A stretch of DNA of 64,000 bases from Verrucomicrobiota bacterium (GTDB lineage Bacteria; Verrucomicrobiota; Verrucomicrobiia; Verrucomicrobiales; Verrucomicrobiaceae): positions 5,893-69,892 of the forward strand of contig CAUJJC010000275.1 in NCBI GenBank assembly GCA_963204975.1, given 5' to 3'. Below, in pieces: positions 5,465-45,265 of this stretch (position 1 is its first letter; each line of letters opens with the position of its first letter). The notes under the pieces were generated by a model. That model saw nothing but the letters and a program-made list of their open reading frames with translations. It searched no databases and was not told where the DNA came from. A program made the translations under genes and the position numbers.

Positions 5465-6699
5465 AAATCGTCGTCCTCACCGCTGATGCGAACACGCTCG
5501 TCTATCATCGTGGCGATCTGATCCGCGACCTTGCACACGCTGGTTGCGAAGTGGTCACCAGCGCCGCCGAGGACTACCCGCATGTGCGCCAATTCGTCGA
5601 GAGCTTCGGGGCACGCCATCGTGCCATCCGCATGGTGCGCAGTCGCGTGAACTTGCTCAGCGACATCGACACCTTCATCGACATGTGGCGGCTCTTCCGT
5701 AGCGAGCGCCCGGACGCGCTCTTCGCCTACACGATCAAGTCCGTCGTCTATGGCTGCGTCGTCGCCGCCCTCGCCGGAGTGCCGCGCATTTACGCCCTGC
5801 TGCCCGGCCTCGGCTTCACCTTCGTCAAGCCGGAGACCTTCAAGCAAAAGGTCGTCAGCGCCATCTCCGTGTGGCTGCATCGCTTCGCGCTCAAGCGCGC
5901 CGACGTGATCTTCATGCAGAACGAAGACGATCATCGACTGCTGACGGAACTGAAGATCCTCCCACCCAAAGTGCCCGCCTTCGTCACCGCAGGCTCGGGG
6001 GTAAACGTCGATGAATTTCCCTTCGTTCCGCTCGAAAACGATCCCGCCATTGCCGAAGGCAAAGTGCGCTTCACCCTCGTCAGCCGCCTGCTCATCAGCA
6101 AGGGTGTGGTCGTCTTCGCCGAGGCAGCGCGCCGCATCCGGCAAAAGTATCCCCAGGCCGAGTTCCATCTCATTGGCCCCTTCGATCCCAACCCCAACCG
6201 CGTCTCCGAAGAGCAGGTGCAAGGCTGGGTCGCGGAAGGCATCCTCACCCATCACGGCATGATCCGCGATGTGGCCGCCGCTCTCCGTGACAAGCATGTC
6301 TTCTGCCTGCCCACCTGGTATCGCGAGGGCGTGCCGCACGCCACGCTGGAAGCCCTCTCAATGGGTAAACCCGTCATCACCACCGACAGCGTTGGCGCAC
6401 GGGAGTGTGTTCGGCTCACCTCCGAAGGCGAAGCCCAGCGAGCAGCAAATGCACCACTGCGCGAGGGCAGCAATGGCTTCCTGGTGGAGCCTCGCAACGT
6501 CGATGCCGTCGTCCGCGCCATGGAGTTCTACTTGCAGCATCCAGACCAGATTGCTCCGCACGGACGCGCCAGCCGCGAACTGGCCGAGGAGGTCTTCGAT
6601 GTGAAGATCGTCAATGCGCTCATCCTTCGCGAGATGGGACTCACTCAAAAGTCCTCTCACGCTCAACCATCTACCAGCCGCGTCGTCGTCCCCGCATGA
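5461..6699 (+). CDS. Glycosyltransferase family 4 (Glyco_trans_4_2-like N-terminus)
   Basis: 412-aa ORF. MKIVVLTADANTLVYHRGDLI N-terminus; REGVPHATLEALSMGKPVITTD GT-B C-terminal motif. Confidence 0.85.
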   Translation: MKIVVLTADANTLVYHRGDLIRDLAHAGCEVVTSAAEDYPHVRQFVESFGARHRAIRMVRSRVNLLSDIDTFIDMWRLFRSERPDALFAYTIKSVVYGCVVAALAGVPRIYALLPGLGFTFVKPETFKQKVVSAISVWLHRFALKRADVIFMQNEDDHRLLTELKILPPKVPAFVTAGSGVNVDEFPFVPLENDPAIAEGKVRFTLVSRLLISKGVVVFAEAARRIRQKYPQAEFHLIGPFDPNPNRVSEEQVQGWVAEGILTHHGMIRDVAAALRDKHVFCLPTWYREGVPHATLEALSMGKPVITTDSVGARECVRLTSEGEAQRAANAPLREGSNGFLVEPRNVDAVVRAMEFYLQHPDQIAPHGRASRELAEEVFDVKIVNALILREMGLTQKSSHAQPSTSRVVVPA

Positions 6700-9110: not shown

Positions 9111-10238
9111 TCACTCACCCTTCATCGCTGGCCCCACTCGTTTCCAGAAGTTTTCCAGGTAGCGCTTCCGCACAGCGGGAGCCTCCTGGATGTGATCGCC
9201 ATCGGCATACATGTCGAGGGTGAGCGTGTCATCATGGGCCTCATCGGTGAGCACGCAGCCCTCTTTCTCGAGGTAAGCACGAAGCTCTGCCATATAGGTC
9301 TCCACCTCTGGCGGATCGGCTTGCGGAGCGCCATTCGGATGAGGGCGCTGCTTCACGCGATGGAAGTGCATCTTCCATCCCTCTGCACGACCAAGGGCGA
9401 TCATGTGAGGCAGGAACGATGCATCGGGCGAGGGATCAAACTTCTTCGAAGACTGATTGTAGTAAGTGCCGATGTCATCCACTTCATCGGCTGCTGGATC
9501 GCCATGGTTTGAGGGAGCCAGATCAGATGCGAGGTCATGACGGAGATGCGCCATGCCAAAGCGATCATTCATTTCATCACGCCGCTCGCCATTGTTCATT
9601 CGCGTGCCGATGCGCGTGGCTCGCAAGGCGCGATTCTGCCAGGATTGCCGTGTGTTGAGATTCAGGAATCTCGCGGGAAAGAGCCAGTCCATCCGATCAC
9701 GGACCGAGCCCACCACACCGTCCTCACCTCCGGTGCGGGTGCCGAGCACTTGCAGCCACTCGGGCTGCTGCGGTCCCTCCATGATGAGAATGGACTCGCG
9801 CTGCATTTGATTGCGAATGCGGAAGTCAGGCCAACTCAGGTCCATGTTTCGGAAGAACACCGAGACCCACTTGGGCTTCGCCTCGGAGGCAGCCACCACC
9901 TGCTTCAAGATGAGAAACCACACGGCTGACTGCGAGGCCGGCAGATACACTCGCCGCGCCTTGATCCCTGTGAACTCAGACATCTGCTCCTGATCAAGGC
10001 GGGAATTCAGCATCGAATTGCCCACCAGCACCCACTCGGGTTGATCCTTGGACAAGCGTTTCCGCTCGGCAGGCGGATGAATGCCGGCTTCCCGATTCAG
10101 CCACTCATGCGATGGCACGTTGTGGGTCCGGCAGAGGATCGCGCAAAACAAAATGGCCACCGCCATCACGGTCAGCAACTGCAGTGAGGCGATGAGGCGA
10201 GAGGAAGTCATGCTGAATAGATGGGCCGATCCATTCAT
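9111..10238 (-). CDS. Membrane-anchored hypothetical protein, possibly an SGNH-like esterase/acyltransferase
   Basis: 375-aa ORF with an N-terminal TM helix. VLVGNSMLNSRLD (GDS-like block I) and C-terminal DGDHI (DxxH-like). The family assignment is tentative. Confidence 0.45.
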   Translation of the reverse strand: MNGSAHLFSMTSSRLIASLQLLTVMAVAILFCAILCRTHNVPSHEWLNREAGIHPPAERKRLSKDQPEWVLVGNSMLNSRLDQEQMSEFTGIKARRVYLPASQSAVWFLILKQVVAASEAKPKWVSVFFRNMDLSWPDFRIRNQMQRESILIMEGPQQPEWLQVLGTRTGGEDGVVGSVRDRMDWLFPARFLNLNTRQSWQNRALRATRIGTRMNNGERRDEMNDRFGMAHLRHDLASDLAPSNHGDPAADEVDDIGTYYNQSSKKFDPSPDASFLPHMIALGRAEGWKMHFHRVKQRPHPNGAPQADPPEVETYMAELRAYLEKEGCVLTDEAHDDTLTLDMYADGDHIQEAPAVRKRYLENFWKRVGPAMKGE

Positions 10239-10339: not shown

Positions 10340-11380
10340 TCAGAATCGCCAGACGATGCCTGTGTGAACAGCCACATCGGAGGCCTCGGGTGTGATGCCA
10401 ATGCCAACTCCTACCTTCAAGGCAAGCCAGTCAACAGGCGACCAGTGAGCCGCCACCAACGCCTGATGCTCCAGCGACGCATCGAAGTCACCCACGGCCT
10501 CCACGCTCATGGCGAAATCATGATGAAACGCGTGCCTTAGCCCGACGCCATAACCCCAGGCTCCCTTGCCATGCTCGGGCGTGAAGTTGATGAGGTTCGC
10601 GACGATCTTGTCGTGCTTGCCGAGATCGGCCTCAATGATCAGGCGCGAATGCAAGCCGCTCTGGCCATGCCGGTGAATGCCCTCATGAATATGAACGGGC
10701 TCAGCAATGGGAATGATCACCGGTTCCACCACCACTTGCTGTGCCTCATCGTCTTGTCTCGGTGCCGGGGCCGCTGCTGCTGGCGCAGCCACAGGATGAT
10801 CATGCGTGCCCGTGGTAGGAGCGTCCGGCCCGCCGCCGCCCGTGGTGCCGCCCGTGTGACGCGAGCGACTGGCACTAGGGGCTGATTTTCCTTTGGTTGA
10901 GGAGCTTGTTGAAGAAGCAATCGCTGCCGCGGCTGGCGTTGTCACCGCCTTGGTGGAAGTCTTGCGGCTGGTGGTGCGTGTCTTTGTCTTTGAGGGACGC
11001 GTAGCGCTATGAGTTTCCTCCTCGGAAGCAAACTCGTAGCCCGTCCACAGGGCCACCCGCACACCCTTGATTTCGACAGGCAAAAGATTGATCACCACGT
11101 AAGGCGTTGTGGAAGAGTAGGCCCAGCCATCGCCCATGTCTGCGAAGTGAGCCATCCCCCCCACAGCCAGCCCCGGCAGCACGCCGAGGTGCAGGCCCGG
11201 TTCCGTAGCATACTCATCGAGTGCCCGCTCACGAGTCCACTCCGAGTTATTGAAGAACGATCCACTCAGTGGCTGCGGAAAAGTCGCGTCTTGAAGCAAC
11301 AAAAAGTCGAGCCCGTGATGAGCACGAGCAGATGTGGCTAGTGCCAGCACAATGATCGGGATCAGGAGAATGCGTGTCAT
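10340..11380 (-). CDS. His-rich putative outer-membrane beta-barrel protein with a low-complexity insert
   Basis: Signal peptide MTRILLIPIIVLALATSARA. His clusters (HHGLDF, HIHEGIHRHGQSGLH, HAFHHDF). About 110 aa of S/T/K/A/P-rich insert. Ends in an aromatic ...GIVWRF. Confidence 0.6.
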   Translation of the reverse strand: MTRILLIPIIVLALATSARAHHGLDFLLLQDATFPQPLSGSFFNNSEWTRERALDEYATEPGLHLGVLPGLAVGGMAHFADMGDGWAYSSTTPYVVINLLPVEIKGVRVALWTGYEFASEEETHSATRPSKTKTRTTSRKTSTKAVTTPAAAAIASSTSSSTKGKSAPSASRSRHTGGTTGGGGPDAPTTGTHDHPVAAPAAAAPAPRQDDEAQQVVVEPVIIPIAEPVHIHEGIHRHGQSGLHSRLIIEADLGKHDKIVANLINFTPEHGKGAWGYGVGLRHAFHHDFAMSVEAVGDFDASLEHQALVAAHWSPVDWLALKVGVGIGITPEASDVAVHTGIVWRF

Positions 11381-11444: not shown

Positions 11445-14400
11445 TTACGGAGCCGGTGTCTGCGCCTCCAGCAGCACGCTGCCGCTGAGTTTCTTCGAGG
11501 TCAGGATCGTGGTCTTCGGAGGACCAACGACAGGCATCTCAGGCAGCAGGAAGCAGCCGTAGCCCTTCGTCGTCGTTCCATCGTTCACGATCATGCCATT
11601 GAAAGTCACCAGACGATCCAGGGACTTGTTGGGCGTCACCGATGTGTCCGTGTCAGTCAGCTTAAAGGTGCCAGTGAAGGAACCCGTGGCGCCCACCGCG
11701 AAGACCGTGCCCGCTCCAGGCGTGATCTTCAGCGTCGCTTTGCCAGGATTGAAGTTCGGATCAATGGTCGCGATCTTGGGCGATCCCGCCGTGATCGTGA
11801 CTTTGCTCGTGTTGAGCCGCGTCGAAGGGCTCGGTGCTCCACCTTCAGCAAAGATCAGCTTGGCATTGTTGGTGCCAGCCGTCAGCCAGGACGAGAGTGT
11901 GGTGACAGTGGCAGGAATGATATACTGACGACCGATGACGATGGGATGGATCGGACCGAAGCCATCTTTGTAAACCCGGTCCACGCCAGTGGTGGTGCCT
12001 GTCTTGAACCAATCCACCTTCGAATCATCCAGAGCGAAGCCTGCGGCACTATCGATGTGCAGCACAGCAATCACCGAACCAAGGTTCGTATACAACAGCT
12101 TGAAGATGCCAAGGTTGCCCATGTGCTCGATCGGAGCCGAGAAGGAAACTTTGGTTTCATCAGCCAGCGTGATAACACCCGTGGTGATGCCCGTGGGTGC
12201 CACGATGAATGCACCGAAGCCGTAGCCCTGGGGCTTGCCCGCCACGCTTTGGTCGCCCACGTCCAGCTTGAGAGCCAGCGTGTAATTGCCTTTGTAGGTA
12301 GCCGGAGTGGCCGAAGGCTGAAGAGCCATGAAGTCGAGACTCCAGGGACCATCCACCACGGTGCCCATGGCCTGCCTGTTAGCTGCATCAATGGCAAACG
12401 AGACCACGAGCGGTGTCTGACCGACACGCGTGATCGTTTGCGTGCCCGTCGGCTTGGCCACCAAGGTGTCGAGCAAGCCGTTGAGCGGATAGGACTTCGT
12501 TCCCAGAACCAAGGTGCCCGTGAATCCGCCGACCGCCGTGGTGGTGATCTTGATGCTGCCGCCGAGGAACTGGTTCATCGTGGAGGAACGACCGAGCACA
12601 CCTGTGAAGCTGCGCACCACGCCATCGCCGAAGAGCTTGGCAACTGTGATGGTGTCCCCTTGCGCAAGGGTGCTGGTGCCCGCGCGATTGGTGGCCTTGA
12701 ACGACACCGCGAAGTTCCCCACTGACAGCGCACGTCCCGTGATGGCTCCAGTCCGCGTGTTGAACGCCACACCAACTGGCAGACGTCCAATCATGAGGAA
12801 TGAAGTTGGATTGTTGGTTGCGGATACTGTCGCATTGATCACCTGACCGATGCTCACATCCGGGAGCGTCACCGTGTTCATCACCGGAAGGGCAGTCACG
12901 CTGAGCACCGCTGGAGCGCTCATCACGGCCCCAGCAGCATTGCGCACTTCCACTTTGTAGGTGCCAGCATCCGCCAGCGTAACCGCATTGACAGGCGGGA
13001 AGGTGCTGGCGATTGCGCCATCGACTTTCACACCGTCCTTGAACCACTGATAGCTCAGCGAAGGACCCACAGCAGTCACCGAGAAGGTCGCCTTCTGCCC
13101 TACATTCAAGGAAAGGCTGGCAGGCTGCTTCGTGATCACTGGCGAGACAAACTGCGGAGCGCTCGTGCTGTAGCTGAAGCTGAAGCCCTGGCGCAAGGTG
13201 TTGGTCGCCGGTGCATTGCTGCCCAATGCAAAGGTGTAGAGACCAGCGGGCAGTGTCCATGAGCGGGTAATCGAGTTTTGAGTGCTGTTATCGATGTGCT
13301 CGATGTAGCCCAGATCCTCGGCCCAGCCCACACTGCCATGGTTGTTATAGGTGTGGTCCTGCATGCCATCCTGATCCCAACCGCGCCAGATGGTGAGCGA
13401 AGGGAACATGCTGCTTGTATCGGCAAGGCGGTCCGGTTCAGCCACTGATGGCCAGGGCACCGTGGCATCGCGAGCCATCGTCACATTGAGCGTGACTGTG
13501 TCTTTCAGCATGACGGCCACCCACTTTGAAGTGTGCGTCCAGCCCACGGGATCATCACCAGGACTGAACAAGGAATTGTCCTCCCAGCTCCACGCGCCGA
13601 CGTGATCTTTGATCGAGCCCGAGTCTCCGGCTCCCACGATGAGCGTGTAGGTGTAAGGTGCTCCATTTCCGCTCTGAGCAATCTGGGTGACAGGAGCAAC
13701 CGCTTGCGCGGACCAGTTGAAGTTGAAGCCCTGGCGCAATGGATTCGTCGCAGGTGCATTGCTGCCCAGCGCGAGCGTGTAGTCGCCCGCAGGGAGACGG
13801 AAGGTGCGCGTGATCGCGGCATCGGTGGAGTTGTCCACATGGTCGATGTAGTTGATGTCTTCCGCCCAGGCCACACGACCCTTGTTGTTGTAGCTGTGGC
13901 TGTCTGCACCGTCTTGGTCCGCACCACGAAACAATGTGAAACTGGGGAACATGCTTGTCGTGTCCGCTAAGCGGCCAGGTTCTTCCGTCGAAGGCCATGG
14001 CACCGTGGCATCGCGGTCCATCTTCACCGTGAAGAGCGCTTCTTGCAGCAGCTTCACCTGCACCCACTTCGAGGTGTGCGTCCAGCCCACAGCGGGCTGG
14101 CCAGGGCCGAACAAAGCATTGTCCTCCCAGCTCCAGGCACCGACGTGGTCTTTGAACGAACCGCTGCCGCCTGGCTGAGCGACCACGGTGTAGCCATAGC
14201 CAATGCCACCACTGGCGGGCGGGCCGACCAGGTTAGGCACGAGGTCGGCAGCGGCTGTCTGCGCGGTGGTGAAGGTGAATGAGAAGCCCTGGCGTGGCGG
14301 GCTCGTTTCCGAAGGCGAGTTACTGCCCAGCACGATCGTGTAGTTGCCCGCAGGCAGTATCCACGAGCGCGTGATGGTGGTCGCCGTCGTGTTGTCAATG

Positions 14401-14912
14401 TGATCGCGATAGGCGAGGTCTTCCGCCCAGATCACATTGCCACGGTTCGCGTAGGTGTGGTGATCGTGTGCTGTCGTCGGCTCATACTCGAGCGTCGTCG
14501 CCACATCTGCGGGCATGAGGTCATTGTCCCAGTTGCTCCACAACGTGAGCGAAGGAAACATGTGATCCACGGCGGCGAAGCCACCGACATTGCCCGTGCC
14601 CGTGTAAGGCACCGTTTCATCGCGGCTCATTGTCACCGTGAGCACTGTGGGTGCTTGCAAGGTGAGTGCCACCCAACGTGAGGTGTGTGTCCAGCCCTCG
14701 CCACCAGCGGGCGCGATGCCTTGATCCTCCCAGCTCCATGCACCGGTGTGGTCCTTGAAGGTGCCGGAATCATTGGCCGTGGCGTCAATGGTCCAGGCGT
14801 AGCCAATGCCGCCCACTTGCGGGTCGCCATTGGTGATGGTGGATGCCTTTGCCGTGAGGCTCGCACAGAGCAGGAGGGCGCAGGTCATCGCTCGATTCAG
14901 TCGTCGTATCAT
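11445..14912 (-). CDS. Giant secreted protein A: 3x unknown ~170-185 aa domain + Ig I-set + cadherin-like Ig + ~385 aa C-terminal module shared with protein B
   Basis: 1155-aa ORF with a signal peptide. Three internal repeats (KDH[TV]GAWSWED...GWTHTS[RK]WV...). An Ig-like SYQWFKDGVKVDG segment, then NPTSFLMIGRLPVGVAFNTRTGAITG. Confidence 0.85.
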   Translation of the reverse strand: MIRRLNRAMTCALLLCASLTAKASTITNGDPQVGGIGYAWTIDATANDSGTFKDHTGAWSWEDQGIAPAGGEGWTHTSRWVALTLQAPTVLTVTMSRDETVPYTGTGNVGGFAAVDHMFPSLTLWSNWDNDLMPADVATTLEYEPTTAHDHHTYANRGNVIWAEDLAYRDHIDNTTATTITRSWILPAGNYTIVLGSNSPSETSPPRQGFSFTFTTAQTAAADLVPNLVGPPASGGIGYGYTVVAQPGGSGSFKDHVGAWSWEDNALFGPGQPAVGWTHTSKWVQVKLLQEALFTVKMDRDATVPWPSTEEPGRLADTTSMFPSFTLFRGADQDGADSHSYNNKGRVAWAEDINYIDHVDNSTDAAITRTFRLPAGDYTLALGSNAPATNPLRQGFNFNWSAQAVAPVTQIAQSGNGAPYTYTLIVGAGDSGSIKDHVGAWSWEDNSLFSPGDDPVGWTHTSKWVAVMLKDTVTLNVTMARDATVPWPSVAEPDRLADTSSMFPSLTIWRGWDQDGMQDHTYNNHGSVGWAEDLGYIEHIDNSTQNSITRSWTLPAGLYTFALGSNAPATNTLRQGFSFSYSTSAPQFVSPVITKQPASLSLNVGQKATFSVTAVGPSLSYQWFKDGVKVDGAIASTFPPVNAVTLADAGTYKVEVRNAAGAVMSAPAVLSVTALPVMNTVTLPDVSIGQVINATVSATNNPTSFLMIGRLPVGVAFNTRTGAITGRALSVGNFAVSFKATNRAGTSTLAQGDTITVAKLFGDGVVRSFTGVLGRSSTMNQFLGGSIKITTTAVGGFTGTLVLGTKSYPLNGLLDTLVAKPTGTQTITRVGQTPLVVSFAIDAANRQAMGTVVDGPWSLDFMALQPSATPATYKGNYTLALKLDVGDQSVAGKPQGYGFGAFIVAPTGITTGVITLADETKVSFSAPIEHMGNLGIFKLLYTNLGSVIAVLHIDSAAGFALDDSKVDWFKTGTTTGVDRVYKDGFGPIHPIVIGRQYIIPATVTTLSSWLTAGTNNAKLIFAEGGAPSPSTRLNTSKVTITAGSPKIATIDPNFNPGKATLKITPGAGTVFAVGATGSFTGTFKLTDTDTSVTPNKSLDRLVTFNGMIVNDGTTTKGYGCFLLPEMPVVGPPKTTILTSKKLSGSVLLEAQTPAP
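13161..14813 (-). repeat. Three tandem coding repeats (aa 34-216, 235-402, 415-584 of protein A)
   Basis: Repeated blocks GGIGY..T, FKDH.GAWSWED, GWTHTS.WV, MFPS.T, WAED..YI.H.DN, LP.G.YT..LGSN.P, RQGF.F. Confidence 0.8.
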
Positions 14913-19242: not shown

Positions 19243-19292
19243 AGAGTGCTTGGATTTTTGGAGATAGTGATCCCCTGAGTTGAGTTGCTGTT

Positions 19293-19330
19293 GCCCGCCC
19301 GTTGAAACTGACCCGAAACAACGGGCGGGC
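19293..19330 (-). promoter_or_regulatory. Conserved leader hairpin, copy 1 (12-bp stem, 14-nt loop), 51 nt upstream of the protein B start
   Basis: GCCCGCCCGTTG-AAACTGACCCGAAA-CAACGGGCGGGC on the + strand. 35/38 identical to the copy at 24390-24427, including one compensatory pair. Confidence 0.6.
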
Positions 19331-19507
19331 TTTGCAAGGCTCGTGCGAGCGGATACCGGCCGCGCACACAAACCGCGCCCCAGCGCAACCACGAGGGTGC
19401 GTTGGGGTGCAAAGTAGTCTTGGGCTTCAGCCCGTGGGAGCGAGGCAGTCTTGTCAACTGCCTGCGCGCATGTGCATCTGCGAAGGGCGGGAGCCCATCA
19501 CTGTCTG

Positions 19508-19909
19508 TTAAGCCACGAGCATCGCCATGCCGCATCGTGGCGGAGGCGTGGGTGGCATGATGAAAAGCTCGACAGCGGTTTCATCAGCCGCAGCAAAGGC
19601 TTGCTCAGGCAAGGCAGGGGCAATCACAATCATCATTCGCGCCTGGGCGATGAGTTCGATCTTCAGCTTCGCTGATGCTTCCTTAGGGTCCTTCTTTTCA
19701 GATTCGGTGCCCTTCTTGATCGCACAACACATGCGGCACGGATGCTCGCCATCAAAGGTCTGGCTCAGGCCTTCCGTGATGGATCCTTCCTTGATCGAAT
19801 AGGTCACGGCCATGCTCACCCAGGCTGCCGTCTGAAGCACAGCCCACTGCCCACCGATGGAAATCATCAAGGCGGTGAGCAGTAAGAATCTGGCGAAACG
19901 ATGAAGCAC
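19508..19909 (-). CDS. Small membrane-anchored Cys-motif protein (HPCxxCC), unknown family, paralog 1
   Basis: 133-aa ORF. TM helix FLLLTALMISIGGQWAVLQTAAWVSMAV, then FDGEHPCRMCCAIKKGTESEKKDPK and a C-terminal PPRC. About 70% identical over about 95 aa to the 24683-25063 product. Confidence 0.7.
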   Translation of the reverse strand: MLHRFARFLLLTALMISIGGQWAVLQTAAWVSMAVTYSIKEGSITEGLSQTFDGEHPCRMCCAIKKGTESEKKDPKEASAKLKIELIAQARMMIVIAPALPEQAFAAADETAVELFIMPPTPPPRCGMAMLVA

Positions 19910-24311: not shown

Positions 24312-24389
24312 AAAAAGCGAGTCTTTGATAGAGGTTTCAGATGCGCGAGATGCCTTTATCCGGGCATCGCGGAATGAGGGAAGAGTGTC

Positions 24390-24427
24390 GCCCGCCCGAT
24401 GAAACTGACCCGAAACATCAGGCGGGC
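24390..24427 (-). promoter_or_regulatory. Conserved leader hairpin, copy 2, 79 nt upstream of the cytochrome c start
   Basis: GCCCGCCCGATG-AAACTGACCCGAAA-CATCAGGCGGGC. The loop is identical to copy 1. The flanking GCGGATACCGGCCGC block is also conserved. Confidence 0.6.
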
Positions 24428-24682
24428 TATGCACGAACTCGACTGCGCGGATACCGGCCGCACATCCGAGTCACAGCATCACACAACCATGACGGTGCGT
24501 GATGGTGCAAAAGGGGCGATGACAGGGCCAGAGGGGTCTGAAGTAGTCGCTCGAAAGGCATCACTCAGAGCACGGAACTGCTCATGATCACAAGGGTCCG
24601 ACAACAACCGAACAAATCGTTAGACACCAATGCGAAGTCAAAGATGACCTTCCGCTCTTTGAACAACTAGGCTGGCCCTGCC

Positions 24683-25063
24683 TCAGGCGCAGCGCGGCGG
24701 CTGATGTGGCGGAGCCTCGGCCCTCGCCTGCGCGACTTGAGTTGCAGCACCGTGGTCCACTTCAGCGTCCGACGGTGCGATCACCACGATGGCTCTGCCA
24801 TGCGTGAAAAGCTCCAGCTTCTTCTTCGCGGTTTCCTGTTTCGGATCCTTTTTCTCAGACTCTGTGCCCTTCTTCACCACACAGCAGAGGGGGCATGGAT
24901 GCTCACCATCGAAGGTCTCGCTCAGTCCTTTTGTAAGGGAGCCCGCTTTGATCGAATAGCTGACGGCCATGCTGATCCATGCTGCTGATTGCAACACAGC
25001 CCACTGAGCACCGATGGAAATCATCAGAGCGCTCACGAGCAGGAATCTGGCGAGGCGGATCAC
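24683..25063 (-). CDS. Small membrane-anchored Cys-motif protein (HPCxxCC), paralog 2
   Basis: 126-aa ORF: FLLVSALMISIGAQWAVLQSAAWISMAV, FDGEHPCPLCCVVKKGTESEKKDPK, C-terminal PPRCA. Confidence 0.7.
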   Translation of the reverse strand: MIRLARFLLVSALMISIGAQWAVLQSAAWISMAVSYSIKAGSLTKGLSETFDGEHPCPLCCVVKKGTESEKKDPKQETAKKKLELFTHGRAIVVIAPSDAEVDHGAATQVAQARAEAPPHQPPRCA

Positions 25064-32130: not shown

Positions 32131-34784
32131 GCGTGTGGCGAATCCTTGCAAGGAAAGGTCATCGTGAAAACCGCACCGCCATCGGGTGCATTCGTGGCTG
32201 TGACTTTGCCGCCGAGCGCTCGCGCGAAGCCGCGCACGATACTGAGACCCAGACCGGCACCACCGGCGGGGGATTGACTGGAGCGATAGAACTTGTCGAA
32301 CAAGCGCGGCAAATCTTCTTCGGCGATGCCAGCACCATGATCACGCACAGCAAGGCTCCACTGATCACCTTGCTTTGTCGCGGTGACTTCGATGCGGCCT
32401 TCGTTGGGAGTGTAGGCGAGTGCATTGAGCAACAGGTTGGTCACACAGGCTTCGAGCAGACCGGCATCGGTGTGCACGGGTGGGAAGTTGTCGGGCACCT
32501 GGATCACGATGCGTGATTGTTGAGCGGCAGGCACATGATGATCCACCGCCGCGCGCAGCATTTCCTCGATGTCGCACCAGTCGGCCTGAGGCTTGAGCAG
32601 GCCGCTTTCAATGCGGGTCATGTCGAGCAATTGCGTGGTCACGCGCTCGAGGCGGCAAGTGGCGCTGTCCATCTCGCCGAGCAGCAGCGCGCCACGTTCA
32701 TCGGCGGGCTTGGTTTGCAAATCGAGCGAGGCACGCAGCGCCGCGATGGGTGTCTTCAGCTCGTGCGAGACGCTGTCGAGCAGTGCCTTGTGCAGGCGGT
32801 TGGATTGCTCGGCGATCTCAGCGCGCTGCATCGCGGAGGCGAGGTGCTCCTTCTCCAGCACGAGCCCGAGTTGTGCGCACAGGGCTTCGAGCAGGCTGCG
32901 TTCCTCATGTCGCAAAGTGCGACCGCTCGGCCATTCAAGCACGAGCGCACCCATGATGGAACTGCGCGTCTGCAACGGCAGGCAGGTGACACGGCTTTCC
33001 GGCAGCGTCTCGGTGAATCGTCCGGCGGCCTGACGATGCGACTGCACCCAGGTGGCAACACTCCAATCCTTGTTCGTGATGGCAAGTGATGATCCTGCCA
33101 CGGGCTCGCGCAGCAAGGAGTGATCGTTGTCGTTCCGGCGCAGTAACGCGAGAGGAGCATCGAAGAGTTCATGCAAACGCACGAGCGCACGCTGCATGGC
33201 ATCGGACTCATCCAGCGCGCCCGAAGTGAGCTGCGTAAAGCCGAGCAGCGTGGCGGTGCGTTGCTCGCGCTGACGTTCCAACTGCTGCTGCCTGCGCAGC
33301 TTCGAGGTCACATGCCCGATCACCAGTGCGACGATGAAGTAGGCGGCGAACATGATACCGTCGTGCGTCTCTTTGATGTAAAACGTGAAGCGCGGCGGGA
33401 TGAAGAGGAAGTCCCACAGCAGCGCGCTCACCGTCGCCATCACTAGGATCGGCACACGCCCCAGTCGCAGCGCTGAAAGCACGACCGCGAGCAGATAAAT
33501 CAGCGCCACCGACCAGTAGCCGATCCACGACACGGCGAACCAGCAAGCTGCGGTGAGTGCGGAGACAATGCCCAGCGCGATGCCTGTCTCGGCCAGGCGG
33601 TCTGAAGACGTGGTTGTGTTGGTGGAGATGATCTTCGGTGCCGTCGATTCGCCCCGTCTTGGTCGGACCACCTGCACATCAATGTCACCGCTGCCCGCGA
33701 TCAAGCGATCCACGAGCGAGGGCCGCCACCATGCCCACAAGTCGATACGACGCTCCGGCTTGCCCACGATGATCTGCGTAGCGTGGCGCTCTCGCGCCAC
33801 TGCCAGCACTGCATCGCTCACGCTTTGCCCGCTTGTCTGCACCACCTCGGCACCGAGCGATTGCGCCAGCGTGATGTGGCGTGTGAGAGTAGCGCGTGCG
33901 GCTTCACTCAGCACGTCTCCCGTGTCCACCGTGACCGCGAACCACGTCGCATCCAGCATCCCAGCGGCGCGTCTGGTTCGGCGAATCAGACTCTCCGAAC
34001 TCGGGCTCGGTCCGATGGCCACCAGCAGCTTCTCGTTGGTGCGCAGCGGCCCGGTGCGTTTTCGCTCAGCAGCGAACTCGCGAAAGTCTTTGCCCGCGCG
34101 CTCCGCCGCATAGCGCAGCGCGAGTTCACGCAGGGCAGTGAGATTACCCATGCGGAAGAACTGATCCGCTGCCATCGCCGCGCGCTCACCTTGATAGACC
34201 TTGCCCTCCGAGAGCCGTGCGCGCAGTTGCTCCGGCGGCAGATCAATGAGCACCACTTCATCGGCGCGATCGAGCAAGGAGTCCGGCACTGTCTCGCGCA
34301 CAGTGACGCCCGTCAGCTCTGCGACGATTTCGGCACGGCTTTCCACATGTTGAATGTTCAGCGTGGTCCACACCGAGATGCCTGCATCCAGCAGTTCGGC
34401 CACGTCTTGATGCCGTTTCGGATGTCGGCTTCCGGGCACGTTCGTGTGCGCCAGTTCGTCCACCAGGGCGATGCTTGGCCGTCGGGCAAGCAGTGCATCC
34501 AGGTCCATCTCACGCACCGTGATGCCACGATGCTCGGAGCACTTCAGCGGCACGACTTCGAGCCCCTCTATCAACGCCGCTGTCTCCTTGCGCCCATGCG
34601 TTTCTACCACGCCGATCACCGCCTCGGAGCCACGCGCTGCTTGCAGCATGGCAAACGTTTTGCCCACGCCCGGACACATGCCGAGGAACACGCGCAGCCG
34701 AGCCACCTCTGCGCGCGGCTCCTGCATCTCGGCAAGGAGCGCATCAGGATCAGGGCGATGATCGTCGTCGGACATCGGGTTCAA
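32127..34784 (-). CDS. kdpD: KdpD sensor histidine kinase
   Basis: 885 aa. KdpD N-terminal P-loop GMCPGVGKTFAML, Usp-like segment, 4 TM helices, H-box SHELKTPIAAL, G-boxes DHGAGI and GGAGLGLSIV. Confidence 0.92.
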   Translation of the reverse strand: MNPMSDDDHRPDPDALLAEMQEPRAEVARLRVFLGMCPGVGKTFAMLQAARGSEAVIGVVETHGRKETAALIEGLEVVPLKCSEHRGITVREMDLDALLARRPSIALVDELAHTNVPGSRHPKRHQDVAELLDAGISVWTTLNIQHVESRAEIVAELTGVTVRETVPDSLLDRADEVVLIDLPPEQLRARLSEGKVYQGERAAMAADQFFRMGNLTALRELALRYAAERAGKDFREFAAERKRTGPLRTNEKLLVAIGPSPSSESLIRRTRRAAGMLDATWFAVTVDTGDVLSEAARATLTRHITLAQSLGAEVVQTSGQSVSDAVLAVARERHATQIIVGKPERRIDLWAWWRPSLVDRLIAGSGDIDVQVVRPRRGESTAPKIISTNTTTSSDRLAETGIALGIVSALTAACWFAVSWIGYWSVALIYLLAVVLSALRLGRVPILVMATVSALLWDFLFIPPRFTFYIKETHDGIMFAAYFIVALVIGHVTSKLRRQQQLERQREQRTATLLGFTQLTSGALDESDAMQRALVRLHELFDAPLALLRRNDNDHSLLREPVAGSSLAITNKDWSVATWVQSHRQAAGRFTETLPESRVTCLPLQTRSSIMGALVLEWPSGRTLRHEERSLLEALCAQLGLVLEKEHLASAMQRAEIAEQSNRLHKALLDSVSHELKTPIAALRASLDLQTKPADERGALLLGEMDSATCRLERVTTQLLDMTRIESGLLKPQADWCDIEEMLRAAVDHHVPAAQQSRIVIQVPDNFPPVHTDAGLLEACVTNLLLNALAYTPNEGRIEVTATKQGDQWSLAVRDHGAGIAEEDLPRLFDKFYRSSQSPAGGAGLGLSIVRGFARALGGKVTATNAPDGGAVFTMTFPCKDSPHA

Positions 34785-35311
34785 TGCAGCGTATCCAGAG
34801 TCTGATTGAGCTTCAACACATTCACCTGGCCGTCGCCAATCAAGGCCGAGACGAGTGCTTCATCGAGGCCGCGAGCAGTGCAGACACGCTTCAACTGAAA
34901 ACGCGCGGCGTCGGCGCTAATGTGCGGATCGAGACCGCTGCCACTGGCTTGCACGAGTTCCGCAGGCACGGGTGCGTTATCAGGGAGGTTGTGAGCTTTG
35001 CGCAAGGCGGCAGCGCGATCACTGATGACTAGCTTCAAGGCGGCACTCGTGGAGCCGAGATTGCTGGCACCGCTGGGCACGGTGGCGAAAGCGGCGGCGC
35101 TCGGCCTGGGCCAGAAATAGCGTGGTGATTTGAACTCTTGAGCGAGTAACTCGGAGCCGAGCAGCTTGCCGTCAGCACCGGTGATGAGACTGCCATTGGC
35201 CTGATGAGCGAAAGCTACTCTGGCGATGCCGGTGACGAGGAGAGGATAACCGACGCCGGTGATCAAAGTCAGCGTCGCGAAGGTTAGAAGAGCATGGAGA
35301 AGTGTTTTCAT
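34781..35311 (-). CDS. kdpC: K+-transporting ATPase subunit KdpC
   Basis: 176 aa with a single N-terminal TM helix. Positioned between kdpB and kdpD. Has the SGSGLDPHIS motif. Confidence 0.9.
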   Translation of the reverse strand: MKTLLHALLTFATLTLITGVGYPLLVTGIARVAFAHQANGSLITGADGKLLGSELLAQEFKSPRYFWPRPSAAAFATVPSGASNLGSTSAALKLVISDRAAALRKAHNLPDNAPVPAELVQASGSGLDPHISADAARFQLKRVCTARGLDEALVSALIGDGQVNVLKLNQTLDTLH

Positions 35312-35367
35312 GAGAAGAACGGCCGTCCCGGTCGTAAGCAGGGTCGCGACCGAAACGGTCGTTCTCC
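35312..35367. repeat. Palindromic element, short copy (56 bp), filling the whole kdpC-kdpB spacer
   Basis: GAGAAGAACGGCCGTCCCGGTCGTAAGCAGGGTCGCGACCGAAACGGTCGTTCTCC. Its termini are an inverted repeat. It aligns to both ends of the 111-bp copy. Confidence 0.8.
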
Positions 35368-37499
35368 TAGCCGAGTTGTGTGAGGGTTAGAAGGAGGTCA
35401 ATGAGCTTGATGCCGACGAAGGGCACCAGCAGCCCGCCGAGGCCGTAGATCAGGAGGTTGCGCCTCAGCACCACGGCGGCTCCTGCGGCACGATAGGCCA
35501 CGCCTTTCAATGCCAGCGGAATGAGCGCGATGATGATCAGCGCATTGAAGATGACGGCGCTGAGAATGGCGCTCTGCGGGCTGTGCAGATGCATCAAATC
35601 GAATGACTTCAGCGGGCCGTCTCCACTGAGCGCATAAAGACCACCAAACATCGCGGGCAGAATGGCAAAGTATTTGGCCACATCGTTTGCGATGCTGAAG
35701 GTGGTGAGCGCGCCTCGCGTCATGAGCAGTTGCTTGCCGATCTCCACGATCTCGATGAGCTTCGTGGGATTGCTGTCGAGGTCCACCATGTTGCCTGCCT
35801 CGCGGGCGGCCTGCGTGCCGGTGTTCATCGCCACACCCACATCGGCCTGTGCAAGCGCGGGGGCATCGTTGGTGCCATCGCCAGTCATCGCGACGAGCTG
35901 CCCCTTCGCCTGCTCATCGCGAATGCGGCGTAGTTTGTCCTCGGGTGTCGCCTCGGCCATGAAGTCATCCACGCCTGCTTCGGCGGCGATGCTTGCGGCG
36001 GTCAATGGATTGTCGCCCGTAATCATCACGGTGCGGATGCCCATCTGGCGAAGCTGCGCAAAGCGCTCGCGGATGCCGCCTTTGACCACGTCTTTCAGCT
36101 CGATCACACCCAGCACCTGCGCGCCATCGGCGACGACGAGCGGCGTGCCACCGGATTGCGCGATAGACTTCGTGCATTGGTCCACGAGTTCGGGGAATGC
36201 GCCGCCGTTCGATTTCACCCAGGCCTTGATCGCTTCGCCAGCGCCCTTGCGCAGCGAGCGCGTGCCAAGATCCACTCCGCTCATGCGCGCCTGCGCGGTG
36301 AACGGAATAAAGGTAGCATCAAGCTCATGCAGCTCACGCCCGCGCAAGCCATGACGCTCCTTCGCCAGCACGACCACGCTGCGTCCTTCCGGTGTTTCGT
36401 CCGCGAGCGACGAAAGCTGTGCGGCCTCAGCAAGCGTCTTCTCATCAACGTCCGGCGCAGGATGAAACGCGACCGCCATGCGATTGCCGAGCGTGATCGT
36501 GCCTGTTTTATCCAGCAACAGAACAGAGATGTCGCCCGCCGCCTCGACCGCACGACCACTCGTCACGAGCACATTGCGCCGCACCAAGCGATCTATCCCA
36601 CTGATGCCAATCGCACTGAGCAAGCCGCCAATGGTGGTAGGAATGAGACAGACAAACAACGCGATCAGCACTGGCAGACTTGTGTCCACTAGAGAACGAT
36701 CAGTCTCAGTCGTTATCTGGGCCTCGGGGCGTCTAGCCCCGACAGCATCTGAAGCGTGATCGAGACGATCACGATCCCAGTTTACGACCGGGACAGATCG
36801 TTCTCCAAAATTCACAAACGATGGCAGCGTGCCGACGGCGAACACAAACACCAGCGTGAGACTTGTGAGCAGGATACTCAAGGCGATCTCGTTCGGCGTG
36901 CGTTGACGACGCGCGCCTTCAATCAATGAGATCATGCGATCCACGAAGGATTGGCCGGGCTCGCTGGTGACACGTATGAAGATTCGATCACTGAGCACAC
37001 GCGTGCCTCCAGTTACCGCGCAGCGGTCGCCACCACTTTCGCGGATCACCGGAGCGCTTTCACCTGTGATTGCCGACTCATCAACGGTCGCAATGCCAAG
37101 AATGACCTCTCCATCCGCTGCGATGATCTCTCCGGCCTCGCACACAATGGTGTCCCCCTTCACCAGATCTGCGGCAGCAACGGCATCAATCACATCGCCC
37201 TGAACTCGGCGTGCGGACTGAACCTCCCGCAGCTTACGAAGCTCCGCTGCTTGCGCCTTGCCGCGACCTTCAGCGATAGCTTCGGCGAAGTTGGCAAACA
37301 GCACCGTGAACCACAGCCAGGCCGTGAGTTGAATGTGAAACAACGTTGGCTCAACAGTGGTGACAATGGTCGTGGCGATGCTGCCGAGCCACACAGTGAA
37401 CATCACCGGATTGCGCCATTGCCAGCGTGGATCCAGCTTCCGCAAGCTGGACCAGAACGCGGGAATGAGAAGTTCTTTGGAATAGAAGGATGAGGTCAT
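35367..37499 (-). CDS. kdpB: K+-transporting P-type ATPase subunit KdpB (carries an in-frame ~38-codon repeat-element insert)
   Basis: 710 aa. [44 protein letters not shown]. Confidence 0.93.
36691..36806. repeat. Palindromic element copy inside kdpB, inverted relative to the kdpA copy
   Basis: AGAGAACGATCAGTCTCAGTCGT...ACGACCGGGACAGATCGTTCTCC. Its reverse complement aligns along the full length of 38791-38901. Confidence 0.8.
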
Positions 37500-37501
37500 G
37501 A

Positions 37502-37583
37502 GGAGAACGACCTTCTCGGTCGCGTTGCAGTGCGCGAGCTAGACGCCCGCTTGCCCAGAGGACGACCGGGACGGTCGTTCTCC
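37502..37583. repeat. Palindromic element copy (82 bp) in the kdpB-kdpA spacer
   Basis: GGAGAACGACCTTCTCGGTCGC...CCCAGAGGACGACCGGGACGGTCGTTCTCC. It occupies most of the 94-nt spacer. Confidence 0.8.
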
Positions 37584-37593
37584 GGGTGTGAAA

Positions 37594-39348
37594 TCAAAAG
37601 GTGCGACCATTATTCATGAGCATGTGCTCCACGATGGGGCCGAGCGTAAGGGCGGGCAGGAAGGTGAGGCCGCCAACGATGAGGATGACGCCGAGGAGCA
37701 GCACGATGAACAAGCCGCCATCAGTGGGAAAGGTGCCGGGACCGGGCTCAGCGATGCGCTTCTGCGCCATGCGACCAGCCAGCATCAGTGTCGGCACAAT
37801 CACGCCGAAACGTCCGACGAGCATCGCGAAGCTGAGGCCGTAGTTGTAGAAAGGAGTGTTCGCATTGAGCCCACCGAAGGCGCTGCCGTTGTTGTTTGCG
37901 GCGCTGGCCCAAGCATAGAGCGCTTCGCTGAAAGCATGCGGACCAGCATTGGTGAGGGACGCTCTGCCCGCCTCAGAGAGCACGCTCAACGCGGTGCCGA
38001 TGAGCACCACCAGACTCGGCAAGATCACGGCGACAGCAGCACAGATCACTTCGCGTGCTTCGATACGCTTGCCCAAATACTCTGGCGTGCGTCCGACCAT
38101 CAGGCCCGCTAGGAAGACGGTGAGCACGACGAACATGATCATGCCATAAAGCCCCGAGCCAACACCGCCGAAGATGATCTCGCCCAGCAGCATGTTCACC
38201 AGTGCGACGAGTCCACTCAGCGGCATGAGGCTGTCGTGCATCGCGTTGACCGATCCGTTGGAGGCAGCAGTGGTCGCGGTGGCCCACAGCGCGCTGTCTG
38301 CGATGCCAAAGCGCGTCTCCTTGCCCTCTAGCATGGTTAGCACACCGAGCGATGGATTACTCTGATGCTCTGCCCACAAGGCCGCACCCAGCCCGGTGAG
38401 CAACAGCACGAGCATGGTGGCAAACAAACACCAGCCGTGTCTGCGATGGCCGGTCATGCGGCCAAACATGAACGGGAAGCCAGCAGCGAGCGCGAGGATG
38501 GCAAAGCATTGGAGGAAGTTCGAGAGACGCGTCGGATTCTCGAACGGATGCGCCGAGTTCACGCCGAAGAAGCCGCCGCCATTGGTGCCGAGCTGCTTGA
38601 TCGCGATCTGTGAGGCCGCCGGTCCAAGAGGGATCACCTGCGCAGAACCTTCGAGCGTAGTCGCACTCGCAAACACATCAAAGGTCTGCGGCACACCCTG
38701 CTGCACGAGCACAAGCGACAAGAGAATCGAAAGCGGCAGTAGCACGTAGATCGTGGCCCGCGAGACGTCGCGCCAGAAGTTGCCCAGGCCGGAGAACGAC
38801 CGTCCCGGTCGTAAGCTGGGTTCGCGACCATCTCGGTCGCACGGAGAATCAGCGGGCGAGACGCCCACCTGCCCAGAGGACGACCGAGACGGTCGTTCTC
38901 CCAGCCCGCGCACGAGCGCCGCTGCGACTGCCATGCCCGTGGCGGCGCTGAGGAAGTTCTGCACGCCGAGTCCGAGCATCTGCGTGAGGTAACTCATCGT
39001 CGCCTCGCCGGAATAGGCCTGCCAGTTGGTGTTCGTGAGAAAGCTGATTGCCGTGTTCAGTGCCAAAGGGAACGGCACGTTTGCGAGTGACTGAGGATTG
39101 CCGGGCAGTTTCGCCTGCAGCATTTGCAGCAACATCAGCACCACGAATCCGATCCCATGAAACAGCAGCAGCGCCTTCAAATACTGCGGCCAGTTCATTG
39201 AACGCGAGGTATCGCCAGCCATCAGTTTCTCGCCCGGCAGTGGGCGTTCGACCTGGAACACCCAGGCTAGATAGCGACCGATGAACGGCGCGAGACCGAT
39301 CAGCAGTGCAAGATACAAAAGCAGTTCCAGGACATCGTCTGTTTTCAT
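37594..39348 (-). CDS. kdpA: K+-transporting ATPase subunit KdpA (carries an in-frame 37-codon repeat-element insert)
   Basis: 584 aa, polytopic. GTNGGGFFGVNSAHPFENPT selectivity-filter-type motif. First gene of the operon. Confidence 0.93.
   Translation of the reverse strand: MKTDDVLELLLYLALLIGLAPFIGRYLAWVFQVERPLPGEKLMAGDTSRSMNWPQYLKALLLFHGIGFVVLMLLQMLQAKLPGNPQSLANVPFPLALNTAISFLTNTNWQAYSGEATMSYLTQMLGLGVQNFLSAATGMAVAAALVRGLGERPSRSSSGQVGVSPADSPCDRDGREPSLRPGRSFSGLGNFWRDVSRATIYVLLPLSILLSLVLVQQGVPQTFDVFASATTLEGSAQVIPLGPAASQIAIKQLGTNGGGFFGVNSAHPFENPTRLSNFLQCFAILALAAGFPFMFGRMTGHRRHGWCLFATMLVLLLTGLGAALWAEHQSNPSLGVLTMLEGKETRFGIADSALWATATTAASNGSVNAMHDSLMPLSGLVALVNMLLGEIIFGGVGSGLYGMIMFVVLTVFLAGLMVGRTPEYLGKRIEAREVICAAVAVILPSLVVLIGTALSVLSEAGRASLTNAGPHAFSEALYAWASAANNNGSAFGGLNANTPFYNYGLSFAMLVGRFGVIVPTLMLAGRMAQKRIAEPGPGTFPTDGGLFIVLLLGVILIVGGLTFLPALTLGPIVEHMLMNNGRTF
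38791..38901. repeat. Palindromic element, full-length copy (111 bp), inside kdpA
   Basis: GGAGAACGACCGTCCCGGTCGTAAGCTGGG...CCCAGAGGACGACCGAGACGGTCGTTCTCC. Each end holds a mini-hairpin ACGACCG-N3-CGGTCGT. Confidence 0.85.
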
Positions 39349-43746: not shown

Positions 43747-44337
43747 ATGCCCGCCCCCAAAAAGACCGCCAAGAATGCCGCCGACGCCATCAATGAAAAC
43801 CTGGGCCGCCGGGTGAAGAAGCTGCGTGGTGATCGCGGCTGGTCGTTGGAAGAGCTGTCCAAGGTGAGCGGCGTGAGCAAGTCGATGCTCAGCGAGATCG
43901 AGCGCGAAAAGGCCAACCCTACGCTCAGCGTGACCTATCGCATCGCCAACGCCTTCGGCTTGAATTTGCAGGAGCTGATCGAGACCTCGGAGTCTGCCTC
44001 CGCCATTCAGGTCATCCGCAGCACTGAACGCTCGCAGGTTTATCGCTCGGACAAGCAATGCGAGATCCGCACGCTCTCGCCGCTGAACCTGGAGAAGGAA
44101 ATCGAGTTCTACCAAGTCACGCTCAAACCCAAAGGTGAACTCCGCAGCCAGGCGCACTACGAGGGCACGCGCGAGTTCCTCACCGTCGAGCACGGGGCCA
44201 TCCGCATCGAGTCCGGCAAAGACACCGCCGACCTCGCCAACCACGACTCCGCCACCTACCGAGCCGACATCCCGCACGCCATTGTGAACACGGGCAACCA
44301 GGAGGCTGTGGTGTTTCTGGTGGTGATTTATCGGTGA
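43747..44337 (+). CDS. XRE-family HTH transcriptional regulator with a C-terminal cupin domain
   Basis: Start set at MPAPKKTAKN. HTH LRGDRGWSLEELSKVSGVSKSMLSEIEREKANPT. Cupin C-terminus ...YRADIPHAIVNTG. Confidence 0.85.
   Translation: MPAPKKTAKNAADAINENLGRRVKKLRGDRGWSLEELSKVSGVSKSMLSEIEREKANPTLSVTYRIANAFGLNLQELIETSESASAIQVIRSTERSQVYRSDKQCEIRTLSPLNLEKEIEFYQVTLKPKGELRSQAHYEGTREFLTVEHGAIRIESGKDTADLANHDSATYRADIPHAIVNTGNQEAVVFLVVIYR
44208..44337 (+). repeat. Direct repeat copy 1: the 3' end of the XRE-cupin gene currently in use
   Basis: 130 bp. Matches 45137-45257 except for 6 substitutions and a 9-bp in-frame indel (GACCTCGCC). Confidence 0.9.
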
Positions 44338-44630
44338 ATGTAGAACTCAATCACAGGCTTGCGGCGTTCGATTCAGGCAGTAATCTGGCCAATATGATCG
44401 GGGCTTATGAAGAAACTGTCGCCTTTCTTGCGCGGGGAATGACTTCTGCGGAGTTGCTCGCGTTCAAGCCGTCCGAGGATGCATCAGCCCGCTTCGAGTG
44501 GCTGGTCCAAAAGGAGAAGGCGGAGGGCCTTCTCCCCGATGAGCAGGATGAACTTGATCGCACCATGGAGGTCGAGCGGGTGTTAAGTCTGGCCAAGGCA
44601 CGAGCGCGGGCATCATTAGCACATCGATAG
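44334..44630 (+). CDS. Small acidic hypothetical protein, partner of the HNH endonuclease
   Basis: 98-aa ORF with a GTG start overlapping the upstream stop (GTGA). Helical, with LLAFKPSEDASARFEWLVQKEKAEGLLPDEQDELD. Lower GC than its surroundings. Confidence 0.55.
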   Translation: MNVELNHRLAAFDSGSNLANMIGAYEETVAFLARGMTSAELLAFKPSEDASARFEWLVQKEKAEGLLPDEQDELDRTMEVERVLSLAKARARASLAHR

Positions 44631-45136: not shown

Positions 45137-45257
45137 CGAGTCCGGCAAAGATACCGCCAACCACGACTCCGCAACCTACCGAGCCGATATCCCGCACGCC
45201 ATTGTGAACACGGGCAACCAGGAGGCTGTGGTTTTCTTGGTGGTGATTTATCGGTGA
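45137..45257 (+). repeat. Direct repeat copy 2: displaced 3' end of the XRE-cupin gene, now without a start
   Basis: Encodes ESGKDTANHDSATYRADIPHAIVNTGNQEAVVFLVVIYR* with a TAG in frame upstream. Followed by the terminator hairpin. Confidence 0.9.
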
Positions 45258-45265
45258 AAATGAAG

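Follow-up and report, generated by a model that had tools for sequence, protein, structure and literature searches.

The window analysed here is a stretch of 64,000 nucleotides from a Verrucomicrobiota bacterium (GenBank assembly GCA_963204975.1, contig CAUJJC010000275.1, positions 5,893 to 69,892), which carries a kdp operon encoding the KdpFABC potassium pump. Its kdpA gene contains a 111-bp palindromic element that is very probably a REPIN, a doublet of repetitive extragenic palindromic (REP) hairpins associated with REP-associated tyrosine transposases (RAYTs), and that would be translated as a tolerated, disordered loop. A REPIN of this family would be a non-autonomous mobile palindrome served by a RAYT, an enzyme of the Y1/HUH type. 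One copy may have landed in the DNA of the linker joining helices D1M2 and D2M1 of KdpA, replacing about six loop codons, and since this copy has, by chance, no stop in the kdpA frame, the ribosome would read it as a 37-residue loop that the pump tolerates. The same family would have entered the M3-M4 loop of KdpB in frame and filled both operon spacers, the likely reason for this clustering being a RAYT cassette that formerly stood at the kdpC end and still does in a related lineage. An earlier note, made from the letters of this DNA, had described the in-frame copy inside the unbroken KdpA open reading frame (ORF), which we confirmed, and had likened it to Rickettsia palindromic elements (RPEs). 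It had the kind of event right, the closer family being the RAYT-associated GTAG-type REP doublet, and it considered this one copy and missed the second in-frame copy in kdpB.

In the kdpA frame, the element encodes 37 amino acids (GERPSRSSSGQVGVSPADSPCDRDGREPSLRPGRSFS) that are rich in Ser, Arg, Gly and Pro and are flanked by ...AAALVRGL and GLGNFWRDV. The peptide boundaries given in the earlier note are shifted by one Gly and are equivalent, with a Gly on each flank. The insert-bearing KdpA has the predicted tryptic peptide SSSGQVGVSPADSPCDR. The two halves of the element are inverted repeats of each other, and its terminal 21-mer (GGAGAACGACCGTCCCGGTCG) occurs six times in the window (up to three mismatches), compared with 0.01 occurrences expected from shuffled sequences. 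Folded as RNA, the element reached -75.9 kcal/mol (z = -8.0 against shuffles), with a 22-bp terminal stem, a 5-bp CUGGG/CCCAG stem and two small apical hairpins. Its plan consists of two inverted REP hairpins (ACGACCG-NNN-CGGTCGT, with G+C-rich 7-bp stems and 3-nt loops) placed around two inner hairpins, with GGAGAAC and GTTCTCC as outer tags. When 13 copies were compared, 95% of the cells were paired and seven pairs had changed on both sides, mostly in the two inner hairpins. Searches with nhmmer, using the single element and later the 13-copy profile, found four copies in the 64 kb, all of them within the kdp operon. The kdpA copy of the near-identical strain L001 shows A-to-C and T-to-C changes at positions 10456 and 10466, the partners of one stem pair; these changes are symmetric and not compensatory, giving a C-C mismatch and a Ser-to-Pro replacement.

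The contig is metagenome-derived and palindromes can cause misassembly; the insert could thus be an assembly error, or kdpA a pseudogene with its frame kept by accident. We find this scarcely credible. At least four other samples, assembled independently, yielded the insert (L001, L002, L003 and L075), and the identical insert is present in ENA ERZ23499452, Logan SRR13957630, ENA ERZ28653834 and JGI Ga0075163, which come from different samples and pipelines. Diverged orthologous copies are found in L077 and L079. Because the same insert appears in several such assemblies, it is real and not an assembly artefact, a possibility that the earlier note had named. Nor does the gene look decayed: kdpA, kdpB, kdpC, kdpD and kdpE are all intact and, in comparisons of the window, L077 and L079, the ratio of nonsynonymous to synonymous change (dN/dS) in kdpA outside the loop was 0.08-0.09, with a dS of 0.69-0.76. 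The gene is under purifying selection and has retained its function.

The link to a transposase comes from the related lineage L079, whose KdpA and KdpD are 89% and 92% identical to those of the window. It harbors six copies, four at the sites occupied in the window and two bracketing a 223-aa ORF between kdpC and kdpD, a cassette that is absent from this position in the window. The ORF has an HVH motif and a conserved Tyr, scored 27.7 bits against Pfam Y1_Tnp (cut-off 23) and matched the NCBIfam model REP_Tyr_transpos ('REP-associated tyrosine transposase') with an E value of 2.8e-17. Homologous proteins from Verrucomicrobiaceae, Prosthecobacter and Luteolibacter bear the name 'REP element-mobilizing transposase RayT'. 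Three RAYT homologues (L081, L082 and L083) each have elements of the same architecture on either side, following the plan (G/T)AGAAC-stem-loop-stem-GTAAACTGG ... CCAGTTTAC-stem-loop-stem-GTTCT(A/C)C, with stem sequences that vary by lineage. The elements of the window, L079 and L082 are tagged GGAG, and those flanking the RAYT homologues of L081 and L083 are tagged GTAG, with GTAGAAC...GTTCTAC as ends. Copies with the same ends also occur outside kdp in the metagenome contigs L073 (between convergent genes), L074 and L076, and L081 carries 6 copies in 20 kb. At about 14 junctions, we observed no consistent target-site duplication and no conserved target sequence; a duplication is not expected for IS200/IS605-type elements. 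Mobilization of the family by a RAYT would be in line with these arrangements. In L079, the downstream copy turns the last codons of KdpC into a 12-residue tail (AENDRLGRQLGP).

A classical miniature inverted-repeat transposable element (MITE) or an RPE-type element with no tie to RAYTs, moved by a DDE transposase in trans or by none, would make the Y1 neighbor coincidental. The long terminal inverted repeats and the length of about 110 bp resemble those of many MITEs and of RPE-1, and the window has no transposase gene. Yet this reading is very unlikely, since target-site duplications are lacking at every junction, such elements with lineage-matched stems bracket each of four independent Y1 transposase genes, and the cognate elements bear the GTAG tag. 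Moreover, RPE-4 and RPE-6 are CGTC-tagged, with 8-9-bp stems starting with A-T pairs and 4-5-nt loops (PMC3733652), which differ from the 7-bp stems and 3-nt loops seen here.

Orthologues without the element define the site before insertion. E. coli KdpA aligns on either side of the insert with only residues ~155-158 between the aligned blocks, and its loop at this point measures about 8 residues, in agreement with the short loop that the earlier note gave for enterobacterial KdpA. The nearest insert-free proteins, P0007 and P0009-P0012 (82-89% identity in a 20-sequence alignment, 78-84% by BLASTP), carry a 6-residue loop at the insert point (GLAGRS(A/G)DCLGNFW or close variants), and P0005 and P0006 have the insert as in the window KdpA. 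The alignment thus showed that the insert is lineage-specific. From empty to filled, the loop changes from GLAGRSADCLGNFW to GL[37 aa]GLGNFW, and the DNA from GGG CTT GCG GGA CGG TCG GCG GAT TGC TTG GGC (L004) to GGG CTG [111 bp] GGC CTG GGC. Because about six ancestral loop codons were replaced, the net gain of KdpA is 31 aa; the ~37-aa loop insertion from a mobile palindrome proposed earlier holds for the lineage-specific, 37-aa encoded segment and not for the net gain. Unrelated extras of 10-20 residues occupy the same linker in the distant KdpA proteins P0016, P0038, P0060 and P0091, indicating that it is a permissive site. The empty kdpA site of L004 (~1780-1800) contains GGGACGGTCG, identical to 10 nt of the terminal hairpin of the element, which could be a coincidence or a target preference.

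The AlphaFold2 model of the insert-bearing KdpA (pTM 0.79) superimposed on E. coli KdpA (7NNP, 5MRW and 6HRA, chain A) with TM scores of 0.86-0.87/0.90-0.91 and an rmsd of 2.9 Å. Mapped onto this model, as the earlier note had proposed, residues 153-184 lie between helices 120-149 and 191-216 and had a pLDDT of 30-38 and no secondary structure, which predicts that the loop is disordered while the KdpA fold is otherwise normal. KdpA has the M1-P-M2 repeat plan of a superfamily of K+ transporters. Its selectivity filter binds periplasmic K+ (PMC13042032). Given this plan and periplasmic K+ binding, the D1M2-D2M1 linker would be cytoplasmic. The M3-M4 loop of P-type ATPases, which receives the second in-frame copy, is periplasmic. 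The KdpA insert has 6 Arg/Lys and 5 Asp/Glu and the KdpB insert 6 and 8, charges that fit the membrane sides assigned to the two loops.

The copy in kdpB supplies 39 aa in place of 12 ancestral loop residues (AIKAAGRDGAAA), directly before the M4 motif CLIPTTIGG, and KdpB is 710 aa in the window compared with 682-683 aa in orthologues without the insert. Both spacer copies of the window are truncated versions of elements that are full at the same sites elsewhere: a 110-bp copy lies between kdpA and kdpB in L001 (11766-11875) and a 109-bp copy between kdpB and kdpC in L079 (9368-9476). The 28 nt missing from the window kdpA-kdpB copy and retained in L001 lie between two CGACCGAGAAGGTCG repeats. 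Spacer copies were thus shortened by 28 or ~55 nt via deletion between the near-identical hairpin modules of the element itself. The first G of the kdpB-kdpC remnant completes the TAG stop codon of kdpB.

The kdpA copies of the window, L077 and L079 are each exactly 111 nt, whereas intergenic copies measure 55, 83, 109 and 110 bp. The exact multiple of three reported earlier is therefore true of the kdpA copy without being a built-in property of the family. That the kdpA copies are length-locked and the spacer copies are free argues that the insert is translated, as selection on the frame predicts. An intein, an intron or translational bypass was rejected on similar grounds, as the insert has just 37 codons and coding copies keep a length that spacer copies do not. 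About half of the six frames of this G+C-rich element are stop-free. Reversed coding copies have extra bases in both terminal hairpins, appearing as single-base gaps in other copies, and in the two examined (those of kdpB and L080) these bases shift the frame past a TAA.

An ATG stands 0-2 nt away from the outer end of the element at some six independent loci, the starts of kdpB and kdpC among them (window, 37497-37501 and 35310-35314; L074, ~12-16; L082, ~9871 and ~10860; L079, ~10858), which suggests that ends near start codons are more frequent than by chance.

Coordinates of the kdp genes and REPIN copies in the window, and of the RAYT cassette of L079
Feature	Position	Strand	Description
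kdpA	37594..39348	-	584 aa, K+-binding subunit of KdpFABC; Pfam PF03814 on identical database proteins
REPIN (REP doublet) in kdpA	38791..38901	-	111 bp, in frame, stop-free, wholly within the kdpA ORF
REPIN in kdpA-kdpB spacer	37502..37584	-	~83 bp, 28-nt internal deletion; 2 nt before kdpB ATG
kdpB	35367..37499	-	710 aa, P-type ATPase subunit
Second in-frame REPIN, in kdpB	36691..36806	+	~116 bp; element forward strand antisense to the gene
REPIN remnant in kdpB-kdpC spacer	35313..35367	-	55 bp; 2 nt before kdpC ATG
kdpC	34782..35312	-	176 aa; kdpD begins 5 nt further on
RAYT of L079	10129-10797		full 111-114-bp copies at 10000-10113 and 10862-10972

Selection on the insert differs from that on the surrounding gene. 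In the comparisons described above, the insert had a dN/dS of 0.25-0.48 and a dS of 0.22-0.32, so its peptide is weakly constrained relative to the rest of kdpA. Variable sites amounted to 9 of 84 paired and 10 of 27 unpaired positions (Fisher p = 0.003); either the palindrome is constrained or it is younger than the gene lineages. A constraint acting on the nucleic acid and not on the peptide would suit a REPIN read as a nearly neutral loop, and we count it in favor of that interpretation.

Slow synonymous change could also be the mark of a domesticated element, the four palindromes having become regulators of kdp expression that act in cis as RNA or DNA structures (for example on mRNA stability, RNase processing, subunit stoichiometry or the pausing of ribosomes while the protein enters the membrane) or the loops having gained a role in the pump as protein. 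Indeed, the rest of kdpA changes synonymously 2-3 times faster than the insert, and the 4.6-kb kdpABC region contains every one of the four copies found in the 64 kb, an outcome with a chance of about 4e-4 by our own arithmetic. The same four sites are filled in the window lineage and in L079 despite a gene dS of ~0.76, and both spacer copies end 2 nt before the next start, where the hairpin, if formed, would join stop and start codons. Domestication nevertheless appears unlikely. The close relatives L004 and L005 have a kdp operon with zero copies, spacers of 12 nt (kdpA-kdpB) and 18 nt (kdpB-kdpC) and a 683-aa KdpB. In addition, spacer copies are decaying through internal deletions, the peptide, predicted to be disordered, is under weak constraint, and Rfam gave no meaningful match to the kdp region. 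The clustering is more simply explained by the RAYT cassette at the kdpC end in L079, from which copies of a RAYT-associated REPIN could have been seeded locally.

The history of the kdpA site is complex. L077 (P0005, with insert) and L004 (P0007, without) are sisters at 91% nucleotide identity in kdpA, and the window and L079 genes are each ~83% identical to this pair. In a neighbor-joining tree, the insert-free P0007, P0010 and P0011 are nested among insert-bearing lineages. The right junction of P0005 (TTCTCC joined to CTCGGTAAC) is common to P0006, while its flanks match the insert-free P0007, a mix that suggests short-patch recombination. In L080 (P0008, 75% nucleotide identity), an element at 6276-6390 occupies the same codon boundaries in inverted orientation, encodes a different 38-residue peptide and clusters with its genome's other copy; it arose either by a separate insertion or by inversion in place across the terminal repeats. 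The distribution could stem from one origin and later lateral spread, from recurrent insertion, or from inversion of the element where it stood. The nesting in the tree, the mix in P0005 and the grouping of the L080 copy complicate a single ancient insertion with a simple history.

Several observations weigh against a RAYT-mobilized, translated REPIN. The 63-bit score of the L079 ORF is below the NCBIfam equivalog cut-off of 80 bits, and no RAYT gene is found in the 64-kb window. The tag of the element is GGAG and not the canonical GTAG; degenerate tags such as GTGG have been reported for Opitutus terrae (PMC3733652). The kdpA and kdpB copies are intragenic and so depart from the extragenic location that defines REPs and REPINs, for which intragenic exceptions are documented (PMC3733652). 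Ancestral sequence of 16-36 nt was replaced at three of the four window sites, which peel-and-paste transposition does not predict, and the difference between P0005 and P0007 needs recombination or recurrent insertion. Translation of the insert is deduced from frame and length. Finally, a high copy number could only be presumed: the remaining 60 kb of the window and the GTDB species representatives have no copy. In the latter, the 67 matches to GGAGAACGACCGNNNCGGTCG occurred one per genome in unrelated high-GC genomes, none of which has a real copy according to nhmmer, and the source species seems to be missing from this set. A metagenome scan with a 24-base pattern yielded only four contigs, which shows that non-kdp copies exist and gives no abundance estimate. 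At the protein level, a search with the 41-aa insert gave no hits even though the database contains the parent proteins, pointing to low power (an apparent word-index limit), and an equally low-powered search of a representative library with the 39-aa kdpB peptide returned just two unrelated repeat proteins.

There is a slim chance that the REPIN-RAYT pair is more than a passive parasite here, with an operon-embedded RAYT cassette saturating kdp with palindromes through targeted insertion or domestication. Targeting could take the form of homing on REP-like sequence, such as the GGGACGGTCG at the empty site, or of insertion by replacement. The use of the same kdpA codon in either orientation, the replacement of ancestral sequence, the ends 0-2 nt from start codons and a divergence slower than that of synonymous neighbors could reflect such behavior.

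In the window, kdpD and kdpE come after kdpC, in the same order as in the near-identical contig L001. Other repeats are also present. A hairpin-forming 48-nt repeat (19289-19336 and 24386-24433, 90% identical) adjoins a 280-nt repeat (19617-19896 and 24774-25053, 74% identical) with a spacing of ~5.1 kb, and together they probably represent a duplicated gene pair with a conserved stem-loop. A 104-nt direct repeat (44235-44338 and 45155-45258) is 95% identical over copies 920 nt apart, and several repeat families with a 543-nt period at 13172-14771 look like tandem repeated domains in a large ORF.

The kdp locus reveals neither a new kind of element nor a new mechanism. It offers most of the pieces for studying how a REPIN enters a coding sequence, namely orthologous sites with and without the element, insertion in both orientations at a single codon, decaying spacer copies next to length-locked coding ones, and a cognate RAYT nearby in a related lineage. 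It also extends REPIN-RAYT biology, so far mostly described in Pseudomonas and enterobacteria, to apparently Verrucomicrobiota-type genomes. The two permissive loops of KdpFABC, the D1-D2 linker of KdpA and the M3-M4 loop of KdpB, accept 30-40 extra residues and could be useful for tagging or engineering.

Among known systems, REPIN-RAYT systems combine GTAG-type REP doublets with REP-associated tyrosine transposases (Bertels and Rainey, 2011, PMC3116915; Di Nocera et al., 2013, PMC3733652). The kdp element shares with them two inverted REP hairpins that form one long hairpin, a conserved terminal tag (GTAG in the L081 and L083 cognates), the lack of target-site duplication, and repeat-bracketed Y1/HUH transposase genes with stems that co-vary with the transposase lineage. 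It differs in its GGAG tag, in the two extra inner hairpins that give a branched tip, in the in-frame location of two of the four local copies within genes, and in the RAYT cassette that one lineage carries inside the kdp operon. In Pseudomonas fluorescens SBW25, just 14 of 1,067 REP 16-mers overlap genes (PMC3116915). [quoted passage not shown] Because in-frame REPs of this superfamily were already on record there, the kdpA copy is less unusual than first thought. Like the REP singlets and dimers of O. terrae, from the same phylum, and of other species, the kdp copies lie in frame in genes for known proteins and supply a base of a TAG stop. They differ in the longer insert (37-39 aa), in having two membrane subunits of one transporter as hosts, and in that orthologous empty sites and a cognate RAYT are both at hand. 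No kdp, potassium or ATPase gene is included in the list of Additional file 3 of Di Nocera et al. (2013; PMC3733652).

The first in-frame palindromic repeats to be described were those of Rickettsia (Ogata et al., 2000, 2002, as recounted in PMC10969869). RPEs are likewise palindromes of ~100-150 bp inserted in frame in housekeeping genes, where they add a surface segment compatible with the fold. Unlike the kdp element, RPEs reside in obligate intracellular alphaproteobacteria and encode a conserved peptide, whereas the kdp peptide is poorly conserved and depends on orientation; besides the hairpin differences given above, no dedicated transposase is known for RPE-4 and RPE-6 (PMC3733652). 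Intragenic ERIC, BOX and Anabaena MITEs (PMC10969869) are also short, non-autonomous repeats read through in a host ORF, but these are DDE-derived with target-site duplications, while the kdp element is linked to a Y1 transposase and lacks duplications. The kdp case is thus an unusually complete example of a known phenomenon, nearer to REPINs than to RPEs.

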